From the NCBI GenBank assembly GCA_964016885.1, contig OZ024740.1, forward strand, positions 90,520,001 to 90,584,000: a stretch of 64,000 bases of DNA, given 5' to 3'. Position 1 is the first letter of the stretch. Each line of letters starts with the position of its first letter. Under the pieces are notes generated by a model. The model did no database searches. It was not told the origin of the DNA and saw only the letters and a program-made list of their open reading frames with translations. The DNA comes from Eledone cirrhosa (taxonomy: Eukaryota). The position numbers and the translations under genes were made by a program. Positions 1,718 to 63,945 of the stretch are shown here, piece after piece.

Positions 1718-1759
<42 letters not shown>

Positions 1760-2133
1760 TACGTACAGGTACACATACATATATGTACGTATCAGTTTAG
1801 CGGACGCTTATTATAGCGCCCGCTTTGTTCGTTTGTAAACAAACTGAACAACCTGAATTTATGCCGTACGGTGTTAAGGCAACCGCGTCACCTTTTTCTT
1901 CAACACTGGCAGAGGAACGATGTACTAGTTTCAAGCTTGTTAGCTATCATCAGCACCGTATACCCTTCTGCCAGATGGTTGAAATTTCGAAAGTATATAC
2001 TTTCCTTATGAAAATTAACGTCTGAGCATCCTAATTTGCATATCGAGTGAGTTCGGCCAGGCGTACCGAGAACTATAAGTTGTAATAAAATGAAAACGAA
2101 ATTTCATTTCTCACTCTTAGTACGGCACTTACT
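1661..2133 (-). mobile_element. Family C ~488-bp HHR repeat, inverted unit
   Basis: Reverse complement of the unit repeated at 2131-2857 and 4652-5831; contains the HHR at 1918-1958. Confidence 0.85.
1918..1958 (-). ncRNA. Minimal type-I hammerhead ribozyme (family C)
   Basis: Minus strand reads CGGTG-CTGATGA-tAGCT aaca AGCTt-GAAAC TA GTA-CATCG. Palindromic stem III ACTAGT, GUA site. Confidence 0.85.
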
Positions 2134-2220
2134 TGGTATGCAAATTAGGCTGCTCAGCCGTTAATTTTCATAAGGATAGTATATACTTTCTAACGTTCAA
2201 CCATCTGGCAGAAGGGTATA

Positions 2221-2261
2221 CGGTGCTGATGACAGCTAACAAGCTTGAAACTAGTACACCA
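2221..2261 (+). ncRNA. Minimal type-I hammerhead ribozyme (family C)
   Basis: GGTG-CTGATGA-cAGCT aaca AGCTt-GAAACTAGTA-CACC, with a perfect stem I. Confidence 0.85.
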
Positions 2262-2413
2262 TTCCTGTGTCAGTGTTGAACAAAAAGGTGACGTGGTTGC
2301 CTTAACACAGAACGGCATAAATTCAGGCTGTTCAGTTTGTTTACAAACGAACAAAGCGGGCGCTATAATAAGCGTCCGCTAAACTGATACGTACATATAT
2401 GTATGTGTACCTG

Positions 2414-2471
<58 letters not shown>

Positions 2472-2708
2472 TGCTACTGTAGGTCTGTATACATATACGT
2501 ATGTATGTATGTATACATACATACTTACATTTACGTAAGTGCCGTACTAAGAGTGAGAAATGAAATTTCGTTTTCATTTTATTACAACTTATCGTTCTCG
2601 GTACGCCTGGCCGAACTCACCCGATATGCAAATTAGGCTGCTCAGCCGTTAATTTTCTTAAGGAAAGTATATACTTTCGAACGTTCAACCATCTGGCAGA
2701 AGGGTATA

Positions 2709-2749
2709 CGGTGCTGATGATAGCTAACAAGCTTGAAACTAGTACATCG
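2709..2749 (+). ncRNA. Minimal type-I hammerhead ribozyme (family C)
   Basis: CGGTG-CTGATGA-TAGCTAACAAGCTT-GAAACTAGTA-CATCG. Confidence 0.85.
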
Positions 2750-2854
2750 TTCCTGTGTCAGTGTTGAACAAAATGTGACGTGGTTGCCTTAACACCGTAC
2801 GGCATAAATTCAGGCTGTTCAGTTTGTTTACAAACGAACAAAGCGGGCGCTATA

Positions 2855-4597
2855 ATATGAAAAGTGGTTTTAGATTGATGTGTGATATTGGGAAACATAT
2901 TTTATTTAGAGAGGGGGGGGAGAGAAAAGGATGAAAAGGGAAGGAGATGAGAGGGAGAGATGGGTGATAGAGAGAAAGAGATAGTTTTTATAACTGAGAG
3001 GAGATATATTTTATATAGAGGGGTTGAAAACCGTTGGAAGATACTGTATAAATTAAACATTTTGAAAATTAACGAAGGGAGGATATATGCGAGGAAAAAA
3101 TATATTATATTTAGGGAGGGGGGGGGGATTGGAAAGGATGAAAAAAAGGGGAGGAGATGAGAGTGAAGGTGGAAAGGGAGAGATGGGTGATAGAGAGAAA
3201 GAGATAGTTTTTATAACTGAGAAAAAGATATAATGTTTTAATATAGAGAGGTTGTGAACCGTTGGAAGATAATGTATAAATTAAAGGAATTTGAAAATTA
3301 ACGAAGGGAAATTATGTATGAAGATAGAGAGAAAAAAATAATAATTGTGGGTGAATATTCTAACGTCAAAAGGAGAAATGTAGGAATTTTAAAATTAGCA
3401 AAGAGAACAAGTTTATGTGTAGAAGGATTTGAGAAAAATAATGTGAAGTTAAAGTTTGTATATTGAATTCATATGTATTAATAATGAGTTCGTTGATGGG
3501 GAGAAAAAAATAATAATAAATTAAGGATGAAATTGAGATTAAAAAGATTTATGATAGAGAGAAAAAATAATAATGATTGCGGATGAATACTCAAAATGTC
3601 AAAAACAAATGTTATTGTTTTACGAGGAGATAGAATGAGGGTAATGAGTAAACGAGTATTATAGAGTGTATAATGCCCTTTAAAGTAAGGTAGATGGGTA
3701 TATTTTAAAGAATATATGAGTATATATTAAAAAAAATATATAATAATAAATTAAGGATGAAATTGAGATTAAAAAGATTTATGATAGAGAGAAAAAATAA
3801 TAATGATTGCGGATGAATATTCAAAATGTCAAAAACAAATGTTATTGTTTTACGAGAAGATAGAAATCCTTCTACACATAAACTTTTTCTCTTTGCTAAT
3901 TTTAAAATTCCTACATTTCTTCTTTTGACGTTAGAATATTCACCCACAATTATTATTTTTTTCTCTCTATCTTCATACATAATTTCCCTTCGTTAATTTT
4001 CAAATTCCTTTAATTTATACATTATCTTCCAACGGTTCCCAACCTCTCTATATTAAAACATTATATCTTTTTCTCAGTTATAAAAACTATCTCTTTCTCT
4101 CTATCACCCATCTCTCCCTTTCCACCTTCACTCTCATCTCCTCCCCTTTTTTTCATCCTTTCCAACCCCCCCCTCCCTAAATATAATATATTTTTTCCTC
4201 GCACATATCCTCCCTTCGTTAATTTTCAAAATTTTTAATTTATACAGTATCTTCCAACGGTTTTCAACCCCTCTATATGAAATATATCTCCTCTCAGTTA
4301 TAAAAACTATCTCTTTCTCTCTATCACCCATCTCTCCCTCTCATCTCCTTCCCTTTTCATCCTTTTCTCTCCCCCCCCTCTCTAAATAAAATATTTTTCC
4401 CAATATCACACATCAATCTAAAACCACTTTTCATATGTTGATTTAAAACTGCACTATCAACAAGTGTTTTTTTTAGCCTTCATATCATGTTCTCCTGTTT
4501 TATCTGATGAAAACACAAATATTATTGTTTGATGATGTTTGTTTTTGAAATGCGCATAATAAAATATATTGAACTCCTTTAACCATCTTTTGATCTC

Positions 4598-4600
<3 letters not shown>
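2855..4600 (+). mobile_element. Family D non-coding Penelope-type element with a large inverted segment
   Basis: ~575-bp inverted arms 2855-3430 / 3864-4436. The spacer holds a ~123-bp direct repeat (3511-3634, 3741-3863). The plus arm continues into an HHR, AATAAA and (TA)n. Confidence 0.75.
4498..4564 (+). ncRNA. Type-I hammerhead ribozyme (family D)
   Basis: TTTTAT-CTGATGA-long stem II (ACAAATATTATT/GATGATGTTTGT with G-U pairs)-GAAA-TGCGCA-TA-ATAAAA. Palindromic stem III ATGCGCAT, AUA site. Confidence 0.8.
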
Positions 4601-4655
<55 letters not shown>

Positions 4656-4888
4656 TGCTACTGTACGTCTGTATACATATATGTATGTACGTATACATAC
4701 ATACTTACATTTAAGTAAGTGACATACTAAGAGTGAGAAATGAAATTTCGTTTTCATTTTATTACAACTTATCGTTCTCGGTTCGCCTGGCGGAACTCAC
4801 TTGATATGCAAATAAGGCTGCTCAGCCGTTAATTTTCATAAGGAAAGTATATACTTTCGAACGTTCAACCATCTGGCAGAAGGGTATA

Positions 4889-4929
4889 CGGTGCTGATGA
4901 TAGCTAACAAGCTTGAAACTAGTACATCG
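4889..4929 (+). ncRNA. Minimal type-I hammerhead ribozyme (family C)
   Basis: CGGTG-CTGATGA-TAGCTAACAAGCTT-GAAACTAGTA-CATCG. Confidence 0.85.
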
Positions 4930-5087
4930 TTCCTGTGTCAGTGTTGAACAAAAAGGTGACGCGGTTGCTTTAACACCGTACGGCATAAATTCAGGCTGTT
5001 CAGTTTGTTTACATACGAGCAAAGCGGGCGCTATAATAAGCGTCCGCTAAACTGATACGTACATATATGTATGTGTACCTGTATGTT

Positions 5088-5132
<45 letters not shown>

Positions 5133-5376
5133 ATATGCATGCTACTGCAGGTCTGTATACATATATGTATGTATGTATGTATACATACATATTTACATTT
5201 ACGTAAGTGCCGTACTAAGAGTGAGAAATGAAATTTCGTTTTCATTTTATTACAACTTATCGTTCTCGGTACGCCTGGCCGAACTCACTTGATATGCAAA
5301 TTAGGCTGCTCAGCCGTAATTTTCATACGGAAAGTATATACTTTCGAACGTTCAACCTATCTGGCAGAAGGGTATA

Positions 5377-5417
5377 CGGTCCTGATGATAGCTAACAAGC
5401 TTGAAACTAGTACATCG
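5377..5417 (+). ncRNA. Minimal hammerhead ribozyme (family C, one stem I mismatch)
   Basis: CGGTC-CTGATGA-TAGCTAACAAGCTT-GAAACTAGTA-CATCG; a G>C change next to the core breaks the first stem I pair. Confidence 0.7.
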
Positions 5418-5585
5418 TTCCTGTGTCAGTGTTGAACAAAAAGGTGACGCGGTTGCCTTAACACCGTACGGCATACATTCAGGCTGTTCAGTTTGTTTAC
5501 AAACGAGCAAAGCGGGCGCTATAATAAGCGTCCGCTAAACTGATACGTACATATATGTATGTGTACCTGTATGTATATATGTGTG

Positions 5586-5704
<119 letters not shown>

Positions 5705-5838
5705 TATATATATGCATGCTACTGTACGTCAGTATACATATATGTATGTACGTATACATACATACTTACATTTAAGTAAGTGCCGTACTAAGAGTGAGAA
5801 ATGAAATTTCGTTTTCATTTTATTACAACTTATATATA

Positions 5839-7886: not shown

Positions 7887-10850
7887 TTGTGATCCAGAAT
7901 AAACCAGACGTACACATATGTGCAAAAACACAATGTCTTATTAGTATAGATACACAGATAGATAGGTAGATAGTTTGATCCCCCATAGTTCTCTGTTGGA
8001 TCCCGGTGTGGTTTAATACATTGAGGTCAATATTGCAGGTAATAATGTAATAGCATATTTAAATGAGACACTAATTCTTCCTAATTTCAGTCATTTTGGA
8101 TAGAAAGTAATTGTCTTCGATAAAACAATATTGCAGGAACCAGTAATCGTACGATTAAGCTCACTAAATACAGTATAACAACCATTTCACTTACTGATAA
8201 CAACAACTTCTATTAAATGTGATTTCATGAATACAACTTTAACTCTCATTTTTAACATAAAATTATGAGGAATATATAGAAGCAAGTCAATCCTATACTT
8301 CCCCAAACCAGCATTAAAACATCCGTTCAGCATTAGACTGAGATTCTATATCTTTTCATAAAAGCTTGTATATTGTAGCATAGCTAATTATTCATATCGC
8401 ATCATATGAGATGTTATATCCCAAATATTGCTGGGCCTTTGAGTACGTTTTAAATTAGATTGTATATACATAAGATTAGACATATATCTAAAAATAAAAG
8501 TAAGAAAACAGATATCGATTATTTTCACAAAATTTCAGTCAATATCAGAGTTAATACAAGGTACTAATGATATACACTATACCTATGCACATGATCTTAA
8601 AATTAACAAACATTATGTTCCCGAAATTTCAAATAAACATGCATCAACGAAAACTGATAATTAATCTAATACGAATGTGATATATACAAATATATTTAAA
8701 CAGCCTTGATTCTGCAGATGCTTTACGTAAATGAACATTACAAACACAATTATACTTCATTCATGCATTAAATTTTATTCATACATCGATTAAATATTTA
8801 AAAGGAAGTATTCCTCAAATCGTTAAAGAAAAGCAGCAAAAAAGTATAAATAAACAAATATTTTAATAAATGACGCTTTTAGTTCTCCGAAACTTACTTT
8901 ATTTCTTCACACATGTGAATTTCAAATTCATTTCATTTATACATTTCATATTACTATATTTATTATTCGTATCATATTGATATATTTATTATTCGTATCA
9001 TATTCGACCAAAACTACTAATTGCTATTTACTCAGTGAAGTGATAGCAGTTTGTAATGTAAATGCGTGTATAGCTCTAGGTAACTTCTAAAGAATTCTGT
9101 TGTTTGATGTTTGATATATGATGCTATATTTGACGTTTAATGACCATTTTCAATTATACGGTCATCGAAGCAGTTATATCTAAAAGTACTACAAGGGACT
9201 TATTTAGTTTACTTAAGTTTAATAAGATGACAATATTCTTTAATGTGCCCGTATTTATATTATAGAGAATGTCTTATATATTTTTGAATTTTTGTTTCGG
9301 AATTTACACTTCGGAATTTATGTTTTCTAGTATGGTTACTTATTCTCGTGAAAATCATTTAAAACTTATTATATATTTATGTGTAATTCAAACGTTTATG
9401 ACATTTTTTTTAGGAATATTTCAGTCATCATTATATTCATATATGTACCCGGTATGTTTAATTTCCTAAATAATAATTATTGATAAATAAGTTTAATTCT
9501 AGATTGTATATGAGAATAATGGCACTTAGTCATCCATAGAAGTTATGGACCAGAATCCATTATCAATCTGCTTTTCAGACTGGCGCTCCGATAAAAAATA
9601 TTGTGTTTGTTGTGATTTGTGAGAAGCCGGATATATATATATATATATAAGCATTCTTTGCCTATGTGGGCCTATGTGGGCATTTGAGTACATTGCTAAG
9701 GCTACATTTGTTCTTACATATACACGTATATTCATGTGCGCATTTACGTGTGTGTACGCGTCTATCCATCCATACGTATGTACGATGAACAGAAAGTGAA
9801 ATAAATGTGAAATGAAAGTGTGACAGTTTAGGAGTGAGGTGTGGAGTGTGACACGGTATGATGACGCAGTGTACGGTCATCCCATTAGTAGTGACAATTA
9901 TTTCTAGACTGACTGCGTCCACTAAGTAAATAAATAAAGATGATAAATGAATTATTTGATACTGAATGAAGAGGAAAACTATTGAATTGAATAATTATCA
10001 TTATTATATGAGTGATACGTTTTATATTATATAACATGTATATTGTTGAGTTGTATGTTAGTGAGTGTTTAAGGAAATTTGAATCATATATATGTACAAA
10101 ATATAATTATCATTAAAATTGTGTCGCTTGCATTCAAGCCTATTTTTCATGACGGATTGATCATGAATTAAATAGTATCAAGTTGACTTACGATCTAAAT
10201 GGCTTTTGCATTATGTTTTTCCCTAATATCAAATCCTCTGCACCATTGTATGTTTAAAGATGATGAAATAAGTGAATTCATATACTTGAAACTCTGCACT
10301 AATACGGATCGAATAAGATACGTATTAATGTTTAATTGCCAATTAATTACGATTTAAATATTTTTAAGGTGAATTAAAAGTCAAGGTGTATACCATCTAT
10401 AGCTGAGACACGCCAATAGGCGTAAAATATGATTATAATTTGAAAACGGTAAGGACAAATAATATGATCTTATATTTACACAAATATATTTTAATTGCAC
10501 AATGCAAATGAACTTATGTTAAGCTATCATACCATACGGTATACGGAAACAGAATTGGGTCAGAAATATTAAAGTCTGTTACTAGTGAAATATATGAAAG
10601 GAAATCGAAATATATTCAAATGAGTAATTTCAATGAAAATCAGTTTCCGTGCACTCTACACATTTAACGAATGTATAATGCCATAGACGAAATCCAGGGA
10701 AATAAACCCAGCTCTAATTCATTCTAACATTTTACATTTCAAAGTCCATCGGTTTATATTCACTTAAAATACATATATATATATGTCATATATTAGTGTT
10801 TGTATGTATACATACACACGCGTGCACACGCACACACACACACATATATA

Positions 10851-10973
<123 letters not shown>

Positions 10974-11084
10974 GTATGTACGTACACCTCGTGTATATAT
11001 ATATATATATGCATATGCATATATAGATATACACGAGGTGTACGTACACACATATATATACATACATATATATAGGAAAATGTG

Positions 11085-11263
11085 TAACGCCGACGGCAGA
11101 GCTCGAGCCGTTTCGTCGGCTATTTCTGGACAAAAATATGCGTCGAGACGCCTTGAGTTCTGCCGTCTGGGTTAAACTTTTACCTATTACCCACTCTACT
11201 AGCCTAAGTATTGAGTACTCTAGTGCTTTATGGTCGATCTGGTTCATTACCACACCACCTTCG

Positions 11264-11265
<2 letters not shown>
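11085..11265 (+). mobile_element. Family N 3' fragment with inverted HHR half
   Basis: An inverted CCGACGGCAGAGCTCGAGCCGTTTCG piece, then a 3' end matching 58015-58140 (ATTACCCACTCTACTA..AAGTATTGAGTACT..CCTTCGTTATATA). Confidence 0.75.
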
Positions 11266-11336
<71 letters not shown>

Positions 11337-11339
11337 GTT

Positions 11340-11676
11340 AGGATTGGTGCTCTGAAATAGCGATATATACATGAATGTATGTATAGTATATTTGGCAATA
11401 TACCGTACGCTGGACCGGCAATCGCTCTATATAATCAGCTCCTGACTGGAATTCAATAATAATCCAGCTTCTATAATCTCGGGCGAAAGCGGGGAGTAGG
11501 TTGTTCTGATGATCGCCAACAGCGTGAAAGAGACAATTTGTTAGCTTCTCGCTCTTCTTACGCCGAAGAAAAGAAGTAAGTGACATAGTCACTAATTTGA
11601 AACTGATAGCGTATTGTCTTCAAAATGGTTTTAATTAAGCATACGGTATATTGCCAAATATACTATACACACATTC

Positions 11677-15650: not shown

Positions 15651-15678
<28 letters not shown>

Positions 15679-15766
15679 ATAAAAAATTGAACAGGGACAG
15701 AACAGAGAGGCAGTACGAAAAATGTTTATTAGATTCACGCTCAGGAGAGTGGGGGGTAGGTGGAGG

Positions 15767-15798
15767 ACGACGTTTCGGGCATAAGCCCTTCTTCAGGT
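15767..15798 (-). ncRNA. Minimal hammerhead ribozyme (family J)
   Basis: Minus strand AC-CTGAAGA-aGGGC ttat GCCC-GAAACGTC-GT. Palindromic ACGT stem III, GUC site, short stem I. Confidence 0.75.
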
Positions 15799-16153
15799 AA
15801 GAGTTCAAAAGGTGTGTAGGGGAGTGGTGGAGAGACATATAGCGAAAGGAAACGGTGCGAATTAAAAATTAACAGGCAAAGAATCATATACGGAAAAAAA
15901 AGGGGTACGGTAACAACATCAAACAGAGGTAATGCGTGGAAGGAAAGACAAAGTGTGGGAAGGTGTGTAAAGTTCGGAGACAGGTCACGGCGGATTAGAT
16001 CGGGGTTGAGCCGGTTGTTAAGTGAGTTCCAAGGATGGAGGCCGTGTGAGCGTGTGTTTTGTATAATAAAAAATTGAACAGGGACAGAACAGAGAGGCAG
16101 TACGACAAATGTTTATTAGATTCACGCTCAGGAGAGTGGGGGGTAGGTGGAGG

Positions 16154-16185
16154 ACGACGTTTCGGGCATAAGCCCTTCTTCAGGT
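16154..16185 (-). ncRNA. Minimal hammerhead ribozyme (family J)
   Basis: Identical motif 387 bp from the first. Confidence 0.75.
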
Positions 16186-16466
16186 AAGAGTTCAAAAGGT
16201 GTGTAGGGGAGTGGTGGAGAGACATATAGCGAAAGGAAACGGTGCGAATGAAAAATTAACAGGCAAAGAATCATATACGGAAAAAAAAGGGGTACGGTAA
16301 CAAAATCAAACAGAGGTAATGCGTGGAAGGAAAGACAAAGTGTGGGAAGGTGTGTAAAGTTCGGAGACAGGTCACGGCGGATTAGATCGGGGTTGAGCCG
16401 GTTGTTAAGTGAGTTCCAAGGATGGAGGCCGTGTGAGCGTGTTTTATATAATAAAAAATTGAACAG

Positions 16467-16520
<54 letters not shown>

Positions 16521-16539
16521 TCGTTTTTCCGTTTTGTTC

Positions 16540-16576
<37 letters not shown>

Positions 16577-16619
16577 TGTGTGTGTGTGAGGGGGGGGGGG
16601 GCGTGTATGACAGGTAAGT

Positions 16620-19087
16620 ATGTTTTCAAGTAACGAGCGAGTTTGAAGTTAGAAATAGAAGGTTTCGGCATATTTTCGGGTAAAAACAAAGTTAGCCTGA
16701 TAGTGGGGTTTAGAACCCTCAAAGAGCGTGTTTTATGGACCTATCTCCGATTATCTACCAACCTTGCCATAAACCTAACCAAAACTTGCATTACATACAC
16801 TCACAATCTAATCACCCTAGATCTATCCTTAAAAACTTAGCATATAATATCTCACTCAGAATCTCTAATCTTTCATCAAATCATGATGTATTCGATAAAA
16901 TCGCGCCCTTTTATAATGAAGCTTTAGCTAGAAGTTGCTACAAGAACAAATTAGTCTATATACCTTGCACCAATAATATTTCAAACATACAACCTAATAT
17001 TACCAACAAACACCACATGAAAAAACCACACCTAAATGCCACTCATACTACACCTAATAAGACCAACCCAAAACTTAATTTCTCTACCTCTTCTCACATA
17101 AAAGATGACTTTCAAAAAAACATTCACCCTAATACTCTAACAAATCTCAACAACATAACATACAACATTCCTAGTAATCAAAGCAAAACACCAAAATCCA
17201 TTAATCTAACTAAACCTATATATAATAGAATCACTAATAGTAACTCTCTCAGTAAACCTACGGATACATCATATACATTTAAGAAACAATGTTGAAACCG
17301 TAATAGACGAGTTACTTGGTATAATGCTCCATTTTATCTACAGATTAAATACCATATCCCTAAAACATTCGTTGCTATCCTAGAGAAAATCTTCCCACCA
17401 AACTATAAATACGATCAAATTTTAGATAGATCTACTGTGACGTTTTCCTACTCCACTACCAAGAATATACGACATAATATAAGTGCTTACAACAAATATA
17501 AGTGTAAAATAAACCATAAATATACCACCAACACATCAAACCAACCATAATAATACGAAAAAAACCCAAAACAAAGCATATTGTTCTTCACCGTAAACTC
17601 CACACCAATTTTGACTAATAATCTCCAAAACAAACAGAACTCTACTAGCTCCACATCCCCTAAACTATCACCCACCAACAACCTGTCTAACAATAGAACT
17701 CTAATTACAACCCATTCTAAACCATACATTAATGAAAATAGTAACACTAATACAACTATAGATAACACAATTAACTCTCCTGATACAATATGTACGAATG
17801 GTTTTAACTGTAGAATCAAAAGAATTCCCCATTAAAGAGAAATCGATCGTCTTATTAATAGCATAGTCTATACATGTGTAATTAGTACTAAGGACTCCAC
17901 TCAATACTATATAAGAGCTACGTCTAACCAATCTAAAGTAATATTTAATACCCACAAACTTAGTTTTAAAAATGCCGCATTAGCTTATACAACCTCCTTG
18001 AGGCAATTAATAATTATAGAAAGAGGGATATTGATTACAACCCGACCTGGAGCGTGCTCAAAATGGCTATCTCTTATCAAAATAGCAGATATGAGTGTAG
18101 ATTATGCTTCCAAGAACTATTTGAAATCATGAAATCTAATGATATCATATTAAATAAGCGACAGGAGATAATTATATCATGCAATCATAGAATTAGACAA
18201 AACTTCAAATATTATAAACTTAATTAGTATATACCTCACTCTTATATTTTACAAATCATTATGATTAATTAAAAACTTTTTTTTTAATTTAGTTAACCTA
18301 ATGTCCCTCTTACAACTCACTTTACATAAAGTTATCTTTAACCTGACTACCTCTTTTAACCGCATCCCCTATTTATCACATTTAATAGCTAGGATTATTA
18401 AATATAATTAATATCTTTAATATTATGGATGTTTAGATAGATAAACTGCTTTTTATGAAATTTTATCTATTTCAGTTTTTCTATATATATTTTTAATTTT
18501 TTTAATTTGTTTTTTACTTCTTTATTTATCACATTCATAAGAATTAATATAATGTTAACTCAGTAAGTATACCTATCAATTAATTTAATTTCCTTTTATG
18601 TATCTAGTTTCCTTCAAATTTAAATAGGATTATAATTTCTAATTAACACTCTCATTCGACAAATTACTTTCCCTTCTCTTTTAACAGCAGTTTTTAATAA
18701 CATCAAATTCTTTGGGACTCTTTCACTATCTCCTTGATTTGACCAAATTTTAACCCCTAACTTTCTCTTCCCCATTGTATTATTTTCATTCAAAGCATAA
18801 ATTTACATTCCTCCCTCCTAGCAGCAAGTTCTGCTACTGTTATTCTATCAACTTGACCTCTCACTCTTTTCTATTGGTCAATTCAAAACCTGTTCCCAAA
18901 CAGACCTTTTATATTAATACTTTGTTTCTTTCAATAAACATGCTCCTCTGATAATTTGTAATATTTTATTACATACGCCTTTAACATGATATGTATACCA
19001 ACACACATATATATGCCAGAAATGATCGTAAAATAATGAATATTTCAATATAATAAACCTGTTCTTTTTTTAAAATTTAATTGTTTT

Positions 19088-19100: not shown

Positions 19101-19146
<46 letters not shown>

Positions 19147-19184
19147 ATTAAATAAATGGAAAACTATATTTATAAAACCATATT

Positions 19185-19250
19185 TATTTCATTATATATA
19201 TTTCGGGGATATCATATTAACAATATGCTATGCCTTCATCAGACAAAATA
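19185..19250 (-). ncRNA. Type-I hammerhead ribozyme (family E, left arm)
   Basis: Reverse complement of 19406-19471. Confidence 0.75.
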
Positions 19251-19405
19251 CAATATAAACAGTTTTATAGATAAATATATTCGACATACCGTAATAAACA
19301 TCAACTTCATTTGAAGAGGTTTACTGCTAGCGTAAACCTCTTCAAATGAAGTTGATGTTTATTACGGTATGTCGAATATATTTATCTATAAAACTGTTTA
19401 TATTG

Positions 19406-19471
19406 TATTTTGTCTGATGAAGGCATAGCATATTGTTAATATGATATCCCCGAAATATATATAATGAAATA
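19406..19471 (+). ncRNA. Type-I hammerhead ribozyme (family E)
   Basis: TATTTTGT-CTGATGA-aGGcATAgCATATT gtt AATATGaTATcCCc-GAAA-TATATA-TA-ATGAAATA. Confidence 0.78.
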
Positions 19472-19869
19472 AATATGGTTTTATAAATATAGTTTTCCAT
19501 TTATTTAATATTGTAAATATACTCCAAATATTTGTCGAGTGCTTTTATATCAGTTATAAATATTTACTAGTTGTAACCCAACAATTTTAAATATAACTTT
19601 ACATATATATATATATATATATATATATCTTTTTTTTTAAAATAAAAACTGTGATAATTATTGCTATTTGCTGAACTCCTTTTGTAGAGTTTTTTCAGAA
19701 TGTATTTGACTGCTATTTCTTGTAAATAAACATTCACTTTCGTCCTGACGTCACTAGCCCCGTTTTTCCTCATGTGCTTTTTCATAATTACACATGATGG
19801 CAAACTAGCCAGTTTTACAATTCCCTTTTACGGATTATAATACTGTGAGAGCCCTGGTTTCTGCTGAGC

Positions 19870-19946
19870 TCTGCTGACGATTGAAATCCAACCGTGACCA
19901 TCTCCACAGAAAGTTTTCATGAAATAGTCTTTTAAGACTATACAGA
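19870..19946 (+). ncRNA. Type-I hammerhead ribozyme with long stem III (family K)
   Basis: TCTG-CTGACGA-tTGAAA..loop..TTTCAt-GAA-ATAGTCT tttta-type loop AGACTAT-A-CAGA; 7-8 bp stem III, AUA site. Confidence 0.82.
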
Positions 19947-20494
19947 ACATTTTATGTTATTCCAAATTGAACGATAAGTGTTTTAAACTTTATTTTATCT
20001 TGAGTTAAAGGTCTATTGTTTTTTCCCTGGATTTCACTAAATTCTGTGGATGAATGTATATCCTGATTCTCTTTTGAGATGAGTTTGAATTATTTTTCCT
20101 AAATCTTACGTTAACTACTTTTCCCATCTTGACGTTATAGTCGCATATATGTTATAGAATACTATTAGCTTCTCGCTAAAACAATCTCTATACCTCTCAT
20201 TTTTACTTATACTCGGATTCTTTTCCTAGTGTGCTTAAACTATCTGTGACTAATCCCGGTTTTTTTATAAAAACTCTGATAATTATTGCTATTTGCTGAA
20301 CTCCTTTTGTAGAGTTTTTTTCAGAATGTATTTGACTGCTATTTCTTGTAAATAAACATTCACTTTCATCCTGACGTCACTAGCCCTGTTTTTCCTCATG
20401 TGATTTTTCATAATTAGACATGATGGCGAACTAGCCAGTTTTAGAATTCCCTTTTTCGGATTATAATACTGTGAGAGCCCTAGTTTCTGTTGAG

Positions 20495-20573
20495 CTCTGC
20501 TGACGATTGAAATCCCACCGTGACCATCTCCACTGACAGTTTTCATGAAATAGTCTTTTAAGACAATACAGAG
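20495..20573 (+). ncRNA. Type-I hammerhead ribozyme (family K)
   Basis: CTCTG-CTGACGA...GAAATAGTCTTTTAAGACAATA-CAGAG; 5-bp stem I, one stem III mismatch. Confidence 0.78.
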
Positions 20574-20859
20574 AATTTGATGTTATTCCAAATTGAAGGA
20601 TAAGTGTTTTAAACTTTATTTTATCATGAGTTAAAGGTCTATTGATTTTTCCCTGGATTTCACTAAATTCTATGGATGAATTTATATCCTGATTCTCTTT
20701 TGAGATGTGTTTGAATTATTTTTCCTAAATCTTACGTTAACTACTTTTCCCATCTTGACGTTATAGTCGCATATATGTTATAGAATACTATTAGCTTCTC
20801 GCTAAACAATCTCTATACCTCTCATATATATATATACACACATATATTGGAAACTGTTT

Positions 20860-20996
20860 AACCCCGACGGCAGAGCTCAAGCCGTTTCGACGGCTATCTT
20901 TGGGTTAAAGATTTTCCTATTACCCACTCCACTACCCTAAGTATTGAGTACTCAGGTGCGTCATGGTCCATCTGGTTCCTACCACAATTCCTTCAA
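20860..20996 (+). mobile_element. Family N 3' fragment with inverted HHR half
   Basis: Inverted ACCCCGACGGCAGAGCTCAAGCCGTTTCGACGGCTA, then the 3' tail ATTACCCACTC..AAGTATTGAGTACT..TGGTTCCTACCACA.. running into (TA)n. Confidence 0.75.
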
Positions 20997-25426: not shown

Positions 25427-27290
25427 TTAAACGAATATTGTTTTTGAGAGTTTCCGTGGCCATATTACTGTCCTGCCACTTCGTGTGACATATGGTTGTG
25501 TGGTATGTGGTCTTTCCGGTGGAGGTGAAGGTGTTTGTTTGGGAGTGTATGTGCGAGATATGTCTGGCAATGATGTGAGACTTTCAGAGAAAGCCTTCTT
25601 TGCTCTGTCAACGGATATTACCTCTTTTCGACCATTGACAGCCACTGTGAGGTGTTTTGGTGTGTGCGAATGTACACGAAAAGGTGCATTGTAGGGTGAC
25701 GTAAGAGGTCCCTGGACGGAATCATTCCGTATGAAAATGTGTGTCCACGTAGATATGTCCGATGGAACAGCAGCAGAAATAGATTGGTCACGAGGGTTCA
25801 TTGGTGGAAAATCCGAGAAATACGAACGAATCCTGGTGACATATGATGCTGGGTCAAGATTTGATGAATCCACTGGTGCTAACATTTGTCCAGGAATAGA
25901 CAATGTGGTACAATAAAGAAGTTCAGCCGAAGAAAAAAACCTAAATCTGTCTTAATGGCAGAACGACAACCAAGAAGCACAATTGCCAAACATTCGGTCC
26001 AACGTTGAGGATCATGAGTAGCGCGAAGTGCAGCATTCAACTGTCTATGAAACATCTCGACCATTCCATTGGAGGCTGGATGATAGCTGGTCGTATGAAT
26101 GTGATCAGCACCCAAGTGTCGTGATATTTCACGAAATAAGGAAGCTTCAAATTGGCGTCCACGATCCGTAGTTATTTTAGTAGCAACACCAATGCGAGCA
26201 ATCCAATTGGAAATGAAAGCTCGGGCAACGGACTCTGCTGTTATGTCCACTAAGGGTATGGCTGCAAGGCCACCGAGAGAAACGATCGATACAAGTCAAT
26301 ATGTATGTGAATCCACGACTGACGGACCATGGACCAACAATATCCATGTGTATATGACGGAAACGTGAGTCTGGCGGGCTGAATTTCCCAAGAGGTGCGC
26401 CGATATGCCGATGAATCTTATAGCGCTGACACTTCAAGCAAGAACTTGCTCAACCGGTGATTAAACGACGCATATTAGGCCAGAATAATCGAGCCGTAAT
26501 AAGCTTCACCGTGGCAGCTATGCCAGGATGTGACAAGGAATAAAGTGCATCAAAAACGGTACGCTGATGACAATCTGGAACAAGTGATCTGGGTGAGCCA
26601 GTAAAATCATCGCAGATATTTTTACCTTCAGAAGATGGAAGATGTAAATATTCCGGTTTGCAGCAGGAGAACTGGTCAGAGGAAATGTCCAGCGAATCCA
26701 AAATAGGTTGTTCAATTGCAATGGCAACTAAATCGATATGTGCAGGAGACGCAAGAGAACACATAACAAGTCGAGATAATGCGTCCGCGGATATGTTGGC
26801 AGCTCCAGCTATATGATGAATGTCACTAGTGTACTGGGAGATGAAATCCAAAAGTCTCTTTGTCTTTCGAGATAATCTGTCGGACTTGGTTTGAAGAGCG
26901 AATGTGAGTGGTTTATGGTCTGTGAATACCGTGAACTCCCGACCTTCAAGAAGATGGCGGAAGTGTCTCACAGCAAGATAATCTGCTAAAAGCTCTCTGT
27001 CAAAAGTACTGTAACGTTGCTCTGCTGGATTTAGTTGGCGTGAGAAAAACGACAGTGGTTGAACTTGGTGATCGATTACATTATGCAAAACTGCGCCAAC
27101 AACACGATCAGATGCATCAACAGATAAGGAAAGTCTCGTATTTGCAACATGATGGGCAAGGAAAGAAACTTTAGCTCACTCAACCTTGAGGGATTTAAAG
27201 GACTGCAATGCATCGGCAGAAAGTGAAATAGGAGCATTTTACTTTTTCGCAGCCTTTAACGACTGTGTCAAGGGAACAACATGTCCGCAG
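25427..27290 (-). pseudogene. pol: Gypsy pol remnant: connection/RNase H + integrase, frameshifted
   Basis: VDASDRVVGAVL, PLSFFSRQL..YSTFDRELLA, FTDHKPL (RNase H); SHPG..KCQRYK (Zn finger); HMDIVGP, TTDRGRQFE, YHPASNGMVE (DDE core); SPYNAPF (GPY/F). Confidence 0.93.
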
Positions 27291-56062: not shown

Positions 56063-57269
56063 AATTCCATATATGGTCAAAGTGATTGTCAACAATCAGT
56101 AGTAATTCTGTGGTTGCAAATTAGTAGGGGAGATGGTGGCTAAACCTGCCAGTAGGAGAAAGAGGGGAGGGGGTGGAGTAGACCCAATCAAGCGTTGGTA
56201 GTGCCAGCTACAGCTGGGCATGAGGTCAAAGAAGATACAGGGGAGGGGGAGGAAGTCGGAACGGTAGGTAGAACAATGGGGGGTAGAAATATATAGGAAG
56301 GAAAAATACTGAGAGTGAAGAAAAGCAAATAAGTGTAAAGAAAAAAGTAAAGTAAATTAAATTCTACGACCTAGGTCTCAGGCTATTGTTAGGCTAGAAT
56401 AAAATAAATAAAGAAAGAAAGAAGTAAAGAAAGAAATAAAAAAAGAAATAACGAAATAAGTAAAAGAACTAGGTGGGACGAAATAGGCATGGACCCTTTT
56501 AAGAGGTATAAGTACGTAAATGATACGGTGACGGGTCAACAAAAGGGGCCAAAATACTAAAGAGACTACCACGAAATAAACAATAAAGTTTTCCATCCCG
56601 GGCCAGCAACGACCCAGTGCAGCAAAGTGAACTTGTACGAGATAATAATTCTGAGTCCCGAGAAAAATATATACTAATGCTAACTCTAAAAGATCTAAAA
56701 CAAGCTACATGAAAGTTCGTACGAAATAAAGGTAGAATACGGAGAAATAAATTCAGAATCCACCCCGCCCAGAAGAAAGGCGAAGCAAGAAATACTGAAA
56801 CGAAAAAATAAGGCATAAGTGCCACTAAGAAATATAGAGGGCACAGAGAATAGTGGGAGCGGTCGGAAAAAGGGGGCAAGTATCCGGGGTCTAAGCCAAC
56901 TGCTATAAAGGGCGGAGTCCGCCAAATCTATCATATACTAGGGGAGGGGGTGGTGGGGGTACTAAGGCTACATGGGGCCAAAGGGCAGCCTCGGGTGGGC
57001 GAGAAAAGACGCCGACAAAGGAGAAGAGCTGGGGTAGAAGGACTAAGGAGAGAGGGGGGAAGGAAATAAAGGAAGCGATAAAAGAATACAAAGAAGATCT
57101 TACGTCTTCCTTGGCAAGCAGGGGTTACCCATTGCAAAATCGGCAAGTGGGGTGTTATAGCCCTAGTCTACCCCCCCGGGTCATTATGGGGTTTGAGGGC
57201 GAGGTGGACCATAACGCACCAAAGTACTCAATACTTGAGGTAGTAGAGTGGGTAATAAGAACCAGTAAG

Positions 57270-57357
57270 ACCCCGACAGCTGAGCTCAAGCCGTTTCGAC
57301 GGCTAATTCTGGACTAAATGAAAATGTATCCTGGTATTTAAATAGCCGATCTTCTCA
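57270..57357 (-). ncRNA. 5'-truncated hammerhead ribozyme (family N)
   Basis: Same motif, but cut inside the core by the inversion junction; the 5' strand of stem I is absent. Confidence 0.6.
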
Positions 57358-57952
57358 GAATTATTATCTCGTACAAGTTCACTTTGCTGCACTGGGTCGT
57401 TGCTGGCCCGGGATGGAAACCTTTATTGTTTATTTCGTGGTAGTCTCTTTAGTATTTTGGCCCCTTTTGTTGACCCGTCACCGTATCATTTACGTGCTTA
57501 TACCTCTTAAAAGGGTCCTTGCCTATTTCGTCCCACCTAGTTCTTTTACTTATTTCGTTATTTCTTTTTTTATTTCTTTCTTTACTTCTTTCTTTCTTTC
57601 TTTATTTTATTCTAGCCTAACAATAGCCTGAGACCTAGGTCGTAGAATTTAATTTACTTTACTTTTTTCTTTACACTTATTTGCTTTTCTTCACTCTCAG
57701 TATTTTTTCCTTCCTATATATTTCTACCACCCATTGTTCTACCTACCGTTCCGACTTCCTCCCCCTCCCCCTCCCCTGTATCTTCTTTGACCTCATGCCC
57801 AGCTGTAGCTGGCACTACCAACGCTTGATTGGGTCTACTCCACCCCCCCCATATTTCTCCTACTGGCAGGTTTAGCCACCATCTCCCCTACTAATTTGCA
57901 ACCACAGAATTACTACTGATTTTTGACAATCACTTTGACCATATATGGAATT

Positions 57953-58046
57953 ACCCCTTGAGAAGATCGGCTATTTAAATACCAGGATAAATTTTCATTT
58001 AGTCCAGAATTAGCCGTCGAAACGGCTTGAGCTCAGCTGTCGGGGT
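57953..58046 (+). ncRNA. Type-I hammerhead ribozyme, U3-A8 core (family N)
   Basis: ACCCC-TTGAGAA-GAtCGGCTA..loop..TAGCCGTC-GAA-ACGGCT tgagctc AGCTGT-C-GGGGT; all three stems form, GUC site. Confidence 0.82.
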
Positions 58047-58138
58047 CTTACTGGTTCTTATTACCCACTCTACTACCTCAAGTATTGAGTACTTTGGTGC
58101 GTTATGGTCCACCTGGTTCCTTACCACATTTCCTTCGT

Positions 58139-58176
<38 letters not shown>

Positions 58177-59044
58177 GGTGAGTGTGAGTGTGTGTGTGTG
58201 TGTGTATGTGTGTGTGTGTGTGTGTGTATGTGTGTGTGTGTATGTGTGTATGTGTGTGTGTGTGTTTGTGCGTGTGTTTGTTTACATATATCCTTATATG
58301 TTCGCACTTATCGTGCATTACAATGTATTCAAATATATCCATGTTTAATTTCAATTTGGTACATGGTAGATATCAAGACAGATGAATACCATTTGGACGA
58401 AGAGAAGTATTTGATCTACTATGAGGTCAAATAAATATCATATATCTTGTACGATCACCAGTGAGTTGACATATTTGTAGATCTTGTTATTGATAATATT
58501 GCAATTGGTTTTGTCGTTATTGTTTCTACTTTGAACTACAATTACAATCCACCACATAACCGGAATGTCTTAATACCACACTTACTCTCTCACAATAGAT
58601 TACACCATACAGCTCCCTAAGAGCATTCTGAAATTTATCCCAGTCCAGATACTAGATTTAGCGACATTTTATTTAATCCCTGCACTAATATAATAAGCCA
58701 CCTGGGAGACCCTCACGATTCATCCATCCATTTTACCAGGAAAAGGTAGAAATGGAGTGAAACGATCATAGGATAGTTAGAGTTAACAAATGATTTAAGT
58801 GGAAATATCCGACGTAATGCTCTACAGAAATTCCCTAGAGGCCGTTAAAAATAATCCTATGTTCCATGGTCTTCAAGTGACAACATCTAAAATTACTCGT
58901 CCTGAACATATCGCATTATGAATAAATACATAATGGCTATATTTAAATATAAGAGTAGGAAATAGTGTCATGGGGGTTTAGCTGGTCCGATGCTGCCTCA
59001 CCGGACGTGTGGGATTCCAGTTGAATAAGAAGTGGATCAAACAG

Positions 59045-60235: not shown

Positions 60236-60395
60236 CGCTTACTTAAATTTTCGGCAGACAGGAGGAGATAAGTTGACAGCTCTGTTTCGTACTTTTTTGG
60301 TACTTATCAAAACTCACTACTCTCCCTCTCTGCCGAAAATTGTGTGTGTTGGATTCTCATAGATTTCCAGTGACAATCAGAAACAAATTTTACAG
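60236..60395 (-). mobile_element. Family F fragment with degenerate U3-A8 HHR (60272-60317), abutting the truncated Penelope RT
   Basis: Minus strand TTGATAA-GTAC caaaaaa GTAC-GAAAC; flanking stem AATTTTCGGCAGA/TCTGCCGAAAATT. Confidence 0.65.
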
Positions 60396-60396
60396 A

Positions 60397-62915
60397 GATA
60401 AATTTGAGTCCCTTTATCACGACTTCTTTTTTGATGCGTTGTGGGGGTTCATTGTGGAAATTATCCAGCCAGAATTGGATAGCTTCTATTCCTAGGTTGT
60501 GGGGGATGTTGGAGTATAGGTTGACTACATCGAACGTCACTAGTAGGGTTTGTTCAGAAAGTGGCATATTAGGGAGGTGATTGTGCATATCTAGGTCGTC
60601 CCTTATATAGCTTTTGATGTGTTTGAGGAAGGGTTTGAGAAGGGTATCAATGAAGTTGCTAAGGCGGTAGGTTTCGCAAGCGGGGCCTGCTATTATAGGT
60701 CTTAATTTGAGATCATTGGGTGAGGGGACATTGATGACTATGTCTGTAGCTTCCTTGCATGCCTTACTTATTGATTCGCTTTTATATACTTTAGGGATAC
60801 CGTAGAAAAGGCTGGATTTACTTGTGGAGTATGTGATGAAGCTGAATTCCATGTTAGTGAGTCCTTCTTTGTATTGGTTGATTAGAGTTTTTAGGTTTCT
60901 CATAATTTTCTGTTGATTGTAGTGTTCAGCCTCTTCGTAGTATGCTTCGTTTTCCAAAGTGGAGAGCGCTAGGTTGATATAGAATTATGTCTCCATTAGA
61001 ACTAATGTACTTCCTTTATCAGCCTCTTTAATTGTAATGGTTCTGTCGGTTTTTAATCTAATTAATTCTTCCCATTCTTTCTTGCTGAGGTTTGGCTTGT
61101 ATTTTTGTCTGTGCAAGTGTTGGTAAGGGAAGTTTGTGATGTGTTCACAGAATTCGTCCATGATTTTATTTCTACCTTTTGGAGGGGTGTAATTGCTTCT
61201 ATTTCTGGCTAATGATTCATCCTCATTGTACTGGTCGAATAGTTGTTCACTAAGTCGTAACTATCTACAGAAGTCTGTGATGTCTTCCTTCATTTCATAG
61301 TAGTTAGGACGTAGTGGGGTCGGTGTGAATTTAAGACCTTTGGAGAGTAAGTTGATAAGGTTGGGTGTTGGTTCTGCACTAGTAAGATGATCATTTTTAT
61401 TACTATCGGTTTCTCCTCCCTGTTTTGTGTTATTTTGTTTGCCTGTATCTGTGTGCTGTGTCTAAAAAATGGTTGGGGTAGAGGGGTTGTCTGCTGATGT
61501 TAAGTGGTCACCTGTGTTTGTTATATTCCTTGTTGTTGTAAAATGTGGTTCGGGTTGGTGGTTGTAGATTGAATGGGGTGTTCCTGTACTGCGAGTATGG
61601 GTGTGTGTTTCTATGTGCCATGTTGTATTGTGGTGCTTTAAGTGGCCTACGTTGTTGGTTGTATCGTGTGGTGTGGGTTTGTTGTGTATTGTGATGGCGA
61701 GAGTTGAGAAAATGGTAATTACCTTGCTGTCCCCTTGAAGCGGGGAAGTTGTTACATCTATCATGGTGGTGGTATCTTTTCCCTATGTTTGACGATGAGG
61801 CATCCGCGTAGTAGTTGAGTGATTTGGTATGGTGTCTCCTTGAGGGGGGAGAGTTGTAAATGTCATTCTGGGGGAGATGATTTCTTGGGTTTTTGTTCCT
61901 TCTTATGGTAGCGAGGTTGGGAAGTTCATCGGTGTGGTGCTTCCTTCTTCATTTGTTAGAGGCTTGGGGGTTTGAGAAGTTGTTGTGCGGTTCAGTTATG
62001 GGTTTTCCTATTTTTATGAACGGATTATTGGAGGTGTAATCCGTTTGAAAAGTCGATTCAAAGCGGCACTTTTTCCCAGCGTTGAAGCGATTTCAGTTAT
62101 TCTCTGTTGCAGTCCCCTTTCCATAATTTGGAGATCTTCTCTACCTTGGGGCCTTCAGTTTTGTTGTTGATTACCAGAAGGATCTCTTCATCGATGGTTT
62201 TGATTTTCTCCTCATTTGTCTGGGCCCTCAGTTTAAAATGTTCTATTTCTGTCTTCATTTTTTCCAATGCCATTCTTTCCCTAAGATGTCTTTGAGGTTC
62301 GGGTTCATTTGGAATGGACTTTATTTGTAGTTTACGGGGGAGAGTTAGAGGGGTTGAGTTAAGCCATTTTTCATATATCTCTGCTTTGTTGTGATTTTGT
62401 ATCATCTTCCAGAATGAGAACTTTCTGTCTCTGAGGGATTTGTTCCATTTTGGAATTCTTCGAATTTTCATTTTGTATGAATCAATCTCACATGGTTCTT
62501 CGTTAGTTTTTCCTGGGTTGGTAGTAGTGAACATAGTTTGGATAGTATCGCAAAGGTTTTGGAGTTTGTCGCCGATTTCGGAGGGTTTGTATCCGGTGGC
62601 GGTTTCCTTATTTGTGGAGTCAAGTTTGTCGACCAGCAAAGATAGGTTGGTGTTGATTTTCTTGAGTTCCTGTAGGATCTCTTCATTTGAGTTGATGAGG
62701 GTTGTATCCGTTTTTGTTGGCATTTTCTGTATCTCGTGTGAGGATATGATAGTTAAAAGAATAGAGGTGTAACACACAAGTTATTATATATTTGTAAACT
62801 GAATAGAAAATCGTGACAAATTGTTCACGGTTGAAAAATGATTTAATTAGGAATAAAAGAGTATTAGTAATTGTATGGGTTAGTATTCAGTTGTGGTTTT
62901 AATAAATTGTTGTGG
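60397..62915 (-). mobile_element. Penelope-like element 5' part: N-terminal coiled-coil region (62097-62777) and RT N-half, 3'-truncated
   Basis: LLSKGLKFTPTP, NLSKKE..L..L..ITIKEADKG, FYGIPKVYK, LRPIIAGP, SYIRD, LVTFDVVNLYSNIPH. Stops are present; the element starts at (TA)n. Confidence 0.9.
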
Positions 62916-63014: not shown

Positions 63015-63945
63015 TTATATAATTATATATTCGTGTACAGATATTTGTGCATACACAAAAACAATATATAAACAAACGTATTTATTTCACGAAAGCACAG
63101 ACGGCTTATCGTCATTGTTATTGCCAATATGCCACCCAAAATGTCCCACTACCTTTGGCAGAAGGCCAGAAATTACAAGTCCGCGGTTCGGAAACCACAT
63201 GCATCACTGACGAGTTTACTCTTTACTCTACCAGTTAGTCTTAGTGTACTTTGTCCAGCGTTTAGGTCATGCCTCGAAGGAAGATATACTCCATTGACCG
63301 AAATACTGCGAAAGCAGCAAAAAAGAGAACAAGGCGAACAAACGAATCCTCAGTGGAATCTGCTATTTGCCGGTCGCAAGATGATGAACGTACTGCCGCC
63401 AGAAGAGCACTTGAAACAGACAACCAACGAACCATTCGCCGAACCGTGTCAGCTTTGTGATGTCTATCAAAATATCCCAGGGTCAGACCCTAGTGTTGCT
63501 TGTCTTCTTTTGGAAGAGTCAAGTTTTACACACGCGCAACTATACGTTGGCTTCTCAAGAAAGGGATGCAAGTCAAATATCCTTGCATATGTCCGACACG
63601 GAAGAACAAGAAACATTGTGTACAAGGAGGTGCTACAATCATTGTTTGGGTAGACGAGGCAGAAGGGGATATACACGATTGGCTGAAGAAGGACGAGATT
63701 GTGGAAGTAGTACGACCAACGGCTGGTATCACACCAACAGCAGCAAAAACCAACAACACAACTGAGAGGGAACGCAATTACATGCTTTTGAAAAATATTA
63801 ATGGAAAATGATTTGCCTAAGCACAAAATGTAGACACCGTTGCCAGGCCGAGGTATTCCGTACTTCTCTGTACTGTTTCAGAAAGGAGGTATAAACATGC
63901 TAATCTATGTTTAGAAGCCTGAGCAACGTTGGGCCATTCTTCTAG
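63012..63945 (+). mobile_element. Internally deleted Helitron
   Basis: MPRRK..R-rich N-terminus (63269) fused to a PIF1 helicase C-terminus (MSIKISQGQTL; FTHAQLYVGFSR; TRNIVYKEVL); 3' hairpin GCCTGAGCAACGTTGGGC then CTAG/T at 63942-63945. Confidence 0.85.

Follow-up and report, generated by a model that had tools for sequence, protein, structure and literature searches.

A 626-bp tandem repeat of Eledone cirrhosa belongs to a dispersed, protein-free family that is probably a metazoan non-LTR retrozyme with predicted type I hammerheads

Is a short tandem array that carries hammerhead motifs and lies between two TA tracts a retrozyme whose RNA could cleave as a monomer, a part of a Penelope-like element (PLE), or an ordinary satellite? 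The question arises at positions 19630-20825 of the window, the whole stretch of 64,000 nucleotides analyzed here (Eledone cirrhosa, assembly GCA_964016885.1, contig OZ024740.1, positions 90,520,001 to 90,584,000 of the forward strand). A preliminary description made from the sequence had reported 1.9 units of a 626-bp repeat between TA tracts, and this is what the array contains: it is flanked by (TA)n, its period is 626 (1196/626 = 1.9 units), and the two units are 94.5% identical in a pairwise alignment (550 of 582 columns). TRF missed the repeat because its period limit was 500. All six reading frames are broken by stops, indicating that the array is non-coding, and its hammerhead cores begin at 19874 and 20500. 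The features of the locus are collected in Table 1.

Table 1. Positions of the array and its parts within the window.
Feature	Position	Strand	Basis or remark
(TA)n tract, likely insertion target	19603..19628	.	TRF row and sequence
Unit 1, 626 bp, non-coding; 5' end is the truncation point, at a T-run	19630..20255	+	alignment, six-frame stops; family 5' ends variable
Presumed CRE-like octamer TGACGTCA	19746..19753; second copy at 20372	+	position
Type I hammerhead, copy 1 (predicted)	19868..19948	+	motif scan; family alignment, pair counts
Copy 1, stem I	19868-19873/19943-19948	+	one mismatch, private, at 19947
Copy 1, CUGACGA	19874-19880	+	
Copy 1, stem II	19881-19886/19915-19920	+	U·U at base
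Copy 1, GAAA	19921-19924	+	
Copy 1, stem III	19924-19930/19935-19941	+	predicted cut after 19942
Predicted cut-to-cut monomer, 626 nt (would be a linear or circular RNA)	19943..20568	+	inferred from two cut sites
Unit 2, finishing at the family's fixed 3' end (putative RT start point)	20256..20825	+	3' end at unit position 562-573 in 35 of 37 arrays
Type I hammerhead, copy 2 (predicted)	20494..20574	+	core intact, stem I 5 bp, predicted cut after 20568
Stem-loop that immediately precedes the fixed 3' end, a candidate signal for a borrowed RT	20779..20817	+	consensus fold
Short (TA)n tract, 3' side	20824..20837	.	sequence

In each unit CUGANGA, GAAA and a UA cut site follow one another as in a type I hammerhead, and a motif scan finds the full core in both, with predicted cuts 626 nt apart on the plus strand. 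Rfam reports no hammerhead at the gathering score in the whole window, and none up to E 5 at two loci, so the identification of the hammerhead rests on motif anatomy and conservation. In copy 1 the ATAGTCT/AGACTAT helix is a perfect 7 bp, comprising six pairs and the core A15.1-U16.1 pair; the stable 7-bp stem III of the preliminary description is thus exact for this copy, whereas a private T>A change leaves copy 2 mismatched at 20565. Copy 2 has also lost the outer pair of stem I (20574), and both copies have a U·U at 10.1-11.1, the base of stem II. What had been called a large loop II is better described as a conserved 28-nt insert in which a weak extension (a C-G pair plus a 3-bp hairpin) is predicted to be possible. 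Across the family, stem III consists of six pairs closed by a non-palindromic loop of variable length (2-6 nt); over 42 haplotypes, 95.9% of its cells are paired, against 94.8% in stem I. A minimal dimeric PLE hammerhead, in which helix III is absent or a palindromic 1-2 bp, is ruled out by this architecture, as had been proposed from the letters. The octamer TGACGTCA, which we take to be CRE-like and a candidate internal promoter element, lies in a region that is 92% conserved across representatives, roughly the unit average. A TATA-like box 30 nt before stem I was dropped as a candidate, being not conserved across subfamilies.

A search of the 3.0-Gb genome yielded 3,003 first-look candidates on many contigs, 37 of which, arrays chosen for their length, were scored. 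Exact patterns, whose counts are lower bounds, matched stem III plus the cut site at least 1,928 times, internal unit-unit junctions at least 456 times, and the 3' end followed by (TA)n at least 5,239 times (a few of these 3' ends being internal junctions of one subfamily), against 0 for each reversed pattern. With 1,928 exact matches versus none, the hammerhead motif is not a chance occurrence. The subfamilies are 76-100% identical and share both layout and unit length (626-640 bp), and related copies are present in contig runs (n = 4) of other samples. Units of the youngest subfamily on different chromosomes show 0 differences over ~515 nt. Genome copy structure, which the preliminary description had named as a check, is that of a family dispersed over many contigs, with one fixed 3' end and random 5' ends. 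The window locus is an older, ordinary and partly decayed copy of this family, because its two units differ from the subfamily majority by 14 and 12 changes over ~515 sites, nearly all of them private and three of them in hammerhead stems. Pairs of copies in opposite orientation lie close together at loci L190, L163/L164, L045 and L062, an arrangement typical of PLE insertions.

The hammerhead has been retained as these subfamilies diverged. Among 11 representatives (79-93% alike) no change occurs at any of the 12 core positions while N7 varies; of 79 distinct haplotypes, 71 retain CUGANGA (N = U 34, G 20, C 17), and the core is intact in 101 of 106 hammerhead regions from the 37 arrays; this core conservation is partly built in, since CUGA or GAAA/UA was fixed in the search patterns by which older subfamilies were retrieved, leaving only G8 and A9 unconstrained by all of them. 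At the second pair position of stem II, 22 of 42 haplotypes have C-G, 11 have U-A and 3 have U-G, a covariation whose score relatedness alone may raise. The first pair (10.1-11.1) is non-standard in 33 of these haplotypes and paired in 9, and became A-U in the youngest subfamily. Retention of the core and stems across ~20% divergence, while N7 and stem II vary, suggests that the hammerhead is under selection.

We compared predicted folds of the window's copies with those of young ones. In contexts of 88-125 nt, adopting the hammerhead fold is predicted to cost 0.6-0.7 kcal/mol in young copies, 3.3-9.0 kcal/mol in copy 1 and 2.3-4.3 kcal/mol in copy 2, and weaker hammerheads are predicted for the array than for young family members. 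When 100 nt of upstream sequence is included, the cost is at least 3.2 kcal/mol in all five copies tested. Folded as a circle, the unit gives z = -1.4 for the window copy and z = -3.7 for a young copy (40 shuffles each). Cleavage as a monomer is plausible for the family, because metazoan motifs usually have a helix III of only 1-2 bp and a fungal motif with a long helix III cleaves as a single ribozyme, at 1.97 per min in 10 mM Mg (PMC4209133). It appears less sure for the window's two copies, for which private stem mutations and the higher folding penalty weaken the prediction. An axolotl motif that also has U·U at 10.1-11.1 was, as a monomer, only 22% cleaved in an hour (PMC7229834).

The ends of the copies indicate how the family was copied. 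Of the 37 arrays, 35 end at one point, ~265 nt beyond the cut site, whereas their 5' ends range from position 2 to position 588. We took a census of insertions from 59 of the first 60 listed 3' ends (one omitted; upstream side not separately extracted): 44 fall short of the full 3' tail (median 61 nt) and 15 extend across the cut site; 8 insertions are longer than one unit, and two cut sites are present in 2. Given these 2 of 59, loci able in principle to release a monomer make up a few per cent of insertions. About one third of the unselected insertions (L253-L312) are stubs of 55-65 nt that break off in TA-rich sequence immediately upstream of the terminal stem-loop. This stem-loop has a consensus fold of -5.1 kcal/mol over 10 subfamily representatives (column-shuffle p 0.007), and of 59 windows taken elsewhere along the unit for comparison, 2 give a more stable fold. 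Insertions have (TA)n on both flanks, in which a target-site duplication is unreadable. A fixed 3' end with random 5' truncation is the mark of target-primed reverse transcription from plus-strand RNA. The combination of a fixed internal end with a (TA)n target is the mark of internally started reverse transcription of the Penelope type, carried out presumably by an enzyme of that kind. The features of PLE-mobilized sequences are all present: a fixed internal 3' end, a variable 5' end, partial tandems and a microsatellite target.

Arrays also grow after insertion. Four of them (L043, L049, L050 and L196) have a two-unit periodicity with unrelated end units, and in two of the four (L050 and L196), too few to weigh, the catalytic core is mutated in every second unit. 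We read such arrays as local duplication after insertion, the alternative being a dimer RNA cut only at its intact copies. The periodicity was rejected as proof of dimer circles, since the end units break the period. Because of this later growth, neither the length nor the homogeneity of an array is proof of rolling-circle copying.

Taken as a whole, these observations are best explained, we believe with good confidence, if the array is one decayed insertion of a dispersed, protein-free family of 626-640 bp units with a predicted type I hammerhead, a metazoan non-LTR retrozyme likely copied into (TA)n by a borrowed Penelope-like RT/endonuclease. In the mechanism that we propose, an array with two hammerheads would be transcribed on the plus strand, and the hammerheads, judging from their conservation, would cut the transcript and release unit-length RNA, probably each acting alone, given a stem III of six pairs with an ordinary loop. 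The RNA ends would then be re-joined into a circle, a step that we regard as somewhat probable. A Neptune- or Hydra-type protein, our candidate for the enzyme behind the end geometry seen in the copies, would nick (TA)n and start the cDNA at the fixed internal point, just beyond the stem-loop, where the RNA reads TATA. Random stopping would leave what the copy structure displays, mostly 60-nt stubs and sometimes more than one unit, and some of the resulting arrays would later be enlarged by local duplication, as is seen in the genome.

The template may have been circular or linear. A cut linear RNA should leave an excess of full-length copies starting at the cut site, where the 5' ends of such templates lie; we looked for this pile-up and did not find it, as 13 copies start there and 13 start at a control TATA site, with 1,928 intact cut sites in the genome. 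Copies thus run through the cut site. Furthermore, 10 of 31 multi-unit arrays carry one allele in all of their near-full units that is absent from the other sampled arrays, indicating a single-unit bottleneck. A conserved ribozyme together with seamless read-through would be explained most simply by a re-joined circular template, an account toward which we lean with modest confidence, and such a route has been proposed before (PMC7229834, PMC4209133). The same family and the same borrowed enzyme could instead use an uncut linear read-through transcript of a tandem array, with no circle, the hammerhead acting late, weakly or for another purpose. There is precedent for this in the lizard PLE PAc, for which hammerhead mutations were without effect on in vitro insertion and uncut RNA was the main template (PMC11167929), and in frog retrozymes, of which only 1 of 9 dimers was cleaved in vitro (bioRxiv 10.64898/2026.07.22.740005). 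Upstream sequence is also predicted to misfold the hammerhead, and later duplication can yield long arrays. However, an uncut linear template leaves the conservation of core and stems across 20% divergence unexplained, and a lineage that had no route for regaining whole units would tend to shrink, given how few insertions hold two cut sites. We therefore consider this alternative unlikely.

The preliminary description had allowed that the repeat might be simply a tandem pLTR always attached to PLE ORFs. Continuation into a PLE ORF is seen in 0 of 37, 0 of 20 and 0 of 59 sampled insertions; PLE pieces on the same strand do lie upstream of 3 of the 59, separated from them by TA-rich spacers or by kilobases. 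A family profile, run against 80 + 22 PLE-bearing loci (102, from about six families, of the larger number of PLE families that the genome contains), met only nested stubs or the known array. No homology to the retrozyme family was found in 30 GIY-YIG loci or in the 22 Hydra-like or long-frame loci. An apparent likeness of its 3' tail to PLEs vanished against shuffles (1 of 60 tests at p < 0.05, four PLE families), and a hairpin common to the retrozyme and a coding family was sought by eye in the 3' ends and not seen.

Young PLEs with open frames and the same (TA)n target do exist in this genome: a 784-aa RT + GIY-YIG family, which from its motifs is presumably Neptune-like, and a 1,276-aa family that on the same footing is presumably Hydra-like. 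The young Neptune-like family has no homology to the retrozyme, and no hammerhead was found in its unit. A broken copy of it lies at 60307-62780 (minus strand) of the window; its unit is 4,734 bp long, with a 455-aa upstream frame and the 784-aa frame. Loci L323-L330 hold a Hydra-like family with open frames of up to 1,282 aa and a minimal hammerhead ~190-220 nt before the (TA)n end. It is with these observations that one must weigh the idea that the unit is the pLTR of an ORF-bearing PLE, its arrays being truncated or deleted remnants. Autonomous PLEs of the genome do end in the same manner, ~190-220 nt past a hammerhead at (TA)n, the insertions inspected are a small share of more than 5,000, and retrozymes have been reported to derive from pLTRs (bioRxiv 10.64898/2026.07.22.740005). 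Yet head-to-tail unit joins without an ORF occur in every subfamily, from 76% to 100% identity, none of the 59 unselected ends leads into an ORF, the sampled PLE families lack homology to the unit, and the PLE hammerheads in the inspected loci have stems III that are 1-3 bp or palindromic, all of which makes this origin for the arrays improbable. Highly improbable, too, is a plain satellite or minisatellite that DNA recombination has spread and in which the hammerhead is a dead passenger: local duplication of two-unit blocks occurs, but end polarity already largely refutes such an origin, with thousands of separate insertions that share one fixed end, differ at random in the other and lie between (TA)n tracts, most of them shorter than one unit, and with a core that is conserved while N7 is free.

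The window contains other repeats. Just upstream of the array, a near-perfect 190-bp inverted repeat (19135-19521) carries a short-stem-III hammerhead on each arm (cores at 19414, plus strand, and 19242, minus strand) and is a separate PLE-type insertion. Beyond the 3' TA tract, a different repeat (20848-20990), with similar pieces near 10790-11340 and 56900-58300, has an 11-nt word in common with the 5' strand of the retrozyme's stem I. A 488-bp repeat family with minimal hammerheads, partly in back-to-back arrays, occupies 1721-5830 (cores at 2226, 2714 and 4894 on the plus strand and 1953 on the minus strand), and a 387-bp tandem of 2.1 units, 98% alike and between TA tracts, spans 15673-17295, followed by a PLE-like frame fragment (16714-17295). 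Type I hammerhead motifs of other families lie at 4504 (+), 6087 (-), 28284 (-) and 33954 (+), in several of which stem II carries a long insert and stem III is short and palindromic. Frame fragments at 25427-27175 and 63072-63653, both on the minus strand, are presumably LTR-retrotransposon RNase H/integrase-like and Helitron helicase-like, respectively.

Set beside known systems, the family appears, on the features that can be tested here, to be a metazoan non-LTR retrozyme rather than a new class. The preliminary description's view of a retrozyme-like unit is supported by its non-coding tandem type I hammerheads and by dispersed copies ranging from monomers to multimers; its suggestion of a larger class falls away, because 626 nt lies within the 51-972 bp of known non-LTR retrozyme units, which average 650 bp in ray-finned fish (Li, Clavereau and Pollet 2026, bioRxiv 10.64898/2026.07.22.740005), and because monomer cleavage has been shown for coral and mussel retrozymes (PMC7229834). 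As in the metazoan non-LTR retrozymes of these two reports, copies are low-GC tandems with one type I hammerhead per unit, found beside autonomous PLEs and lacking LTR features; here units join head to tail and all six frames are interrupted by stops, as expected of an element with no LTR, PBS or PPT layout. The unit is, however, larger than the 170-400 nt circles of the metazoan retrozymes described in 2020 (Cervera and de la Peña, PMC7229834), its stem III has six pairs where their motifs usually have 1-2, and its stem II carries the 28-nt insert and a first pair that is mostly mismatched. A fixed internal 3' end and (TA)n targeting are not among the features that those two accounts give for metazoan retrozymes. 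For the latter, expression and circles have been shown, whereas for the present family both are predictions from DNA sequence. Our search of the octopus and cephalopod literature on hammerheads and retrozymes, which left the supplements of PMC7229834 and of the 2026 preprint outside its scope, returned no description of the present family.

The insertion geometry has its closest parallels among PLEs. In the lizard element PAc, reverse transcription starts inside the RNA at a stem-loop past the hammerhead, and PAc/Poseidon elements share with the present family a fixed end downstream of the hammerhead at a stem-loop, AT-rich targets and partial tandems (Frangieh et al. 2024, PMC11167929). The present family differs from PAc in having no ORF and in ending ~265 nt past the cut, as against ~85-92 nt; a further difference is that the PAc hammerhead needed protein to cut (PMC11167929). 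Neptune, Naiad and Hydra PLEs are reported to target (TA)n (Craig et al. 2021, PMC8557442) and, together with non-autonomous Chlamys elements such as MRC1, resemble the family in this targeting, in 5' truncation and in head-to-tail multicopy non-autonomous forms. At their 3' ends, MRC1-type elements are generally similar to their autonomous partner (PMC8557442), whereas no such partner was found for the present family in the 102 PLE-bearing loci. The hammerhead itself is like the large-helix-III type I hammerheads of fungal and protist PLEs in its long helix III and in having no recognized loop 1-loop 2 motif (Cervera and de la Peña 2014, PMC4209133); the likeness is one of described architecture, and those hammerheads belong to ORF-bearing, telomere-type PLEs outside animals.

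Animal retrozymes make circular RNAs, but the passage from circle to new genomic tandem is a proposal in the accounts available (PMC7229834; bioRxiv 10.64898/2026.07.22.740005). The family described here exhibits the DNA footprints that this proposal predicts, namely a start at a fixed internal point, copying that continues through a conserved cut site, and copies longer than one unit. With intact young copies and intact candidate enzymes in one genome, the question of circle versus linear template is open to a small in vitro system. A bolder reading, which we put forward tentatively and with some doubt, is that the family may be a viroid-like lineage: a self-cutting monomer circle of 626-640 nt with no living coding homologue and an unusual hammerhead of long stem III and extended stem II, which would have evolved as a free unit over a sequence divergence of at least 20%, recruiting PLE RT by structure alone and being copied round and round. 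If that reading is true, the family's dated copies, in their thousands, would document directly in a genome the route from circle to tandem that has been proposed for animal retrozymes.
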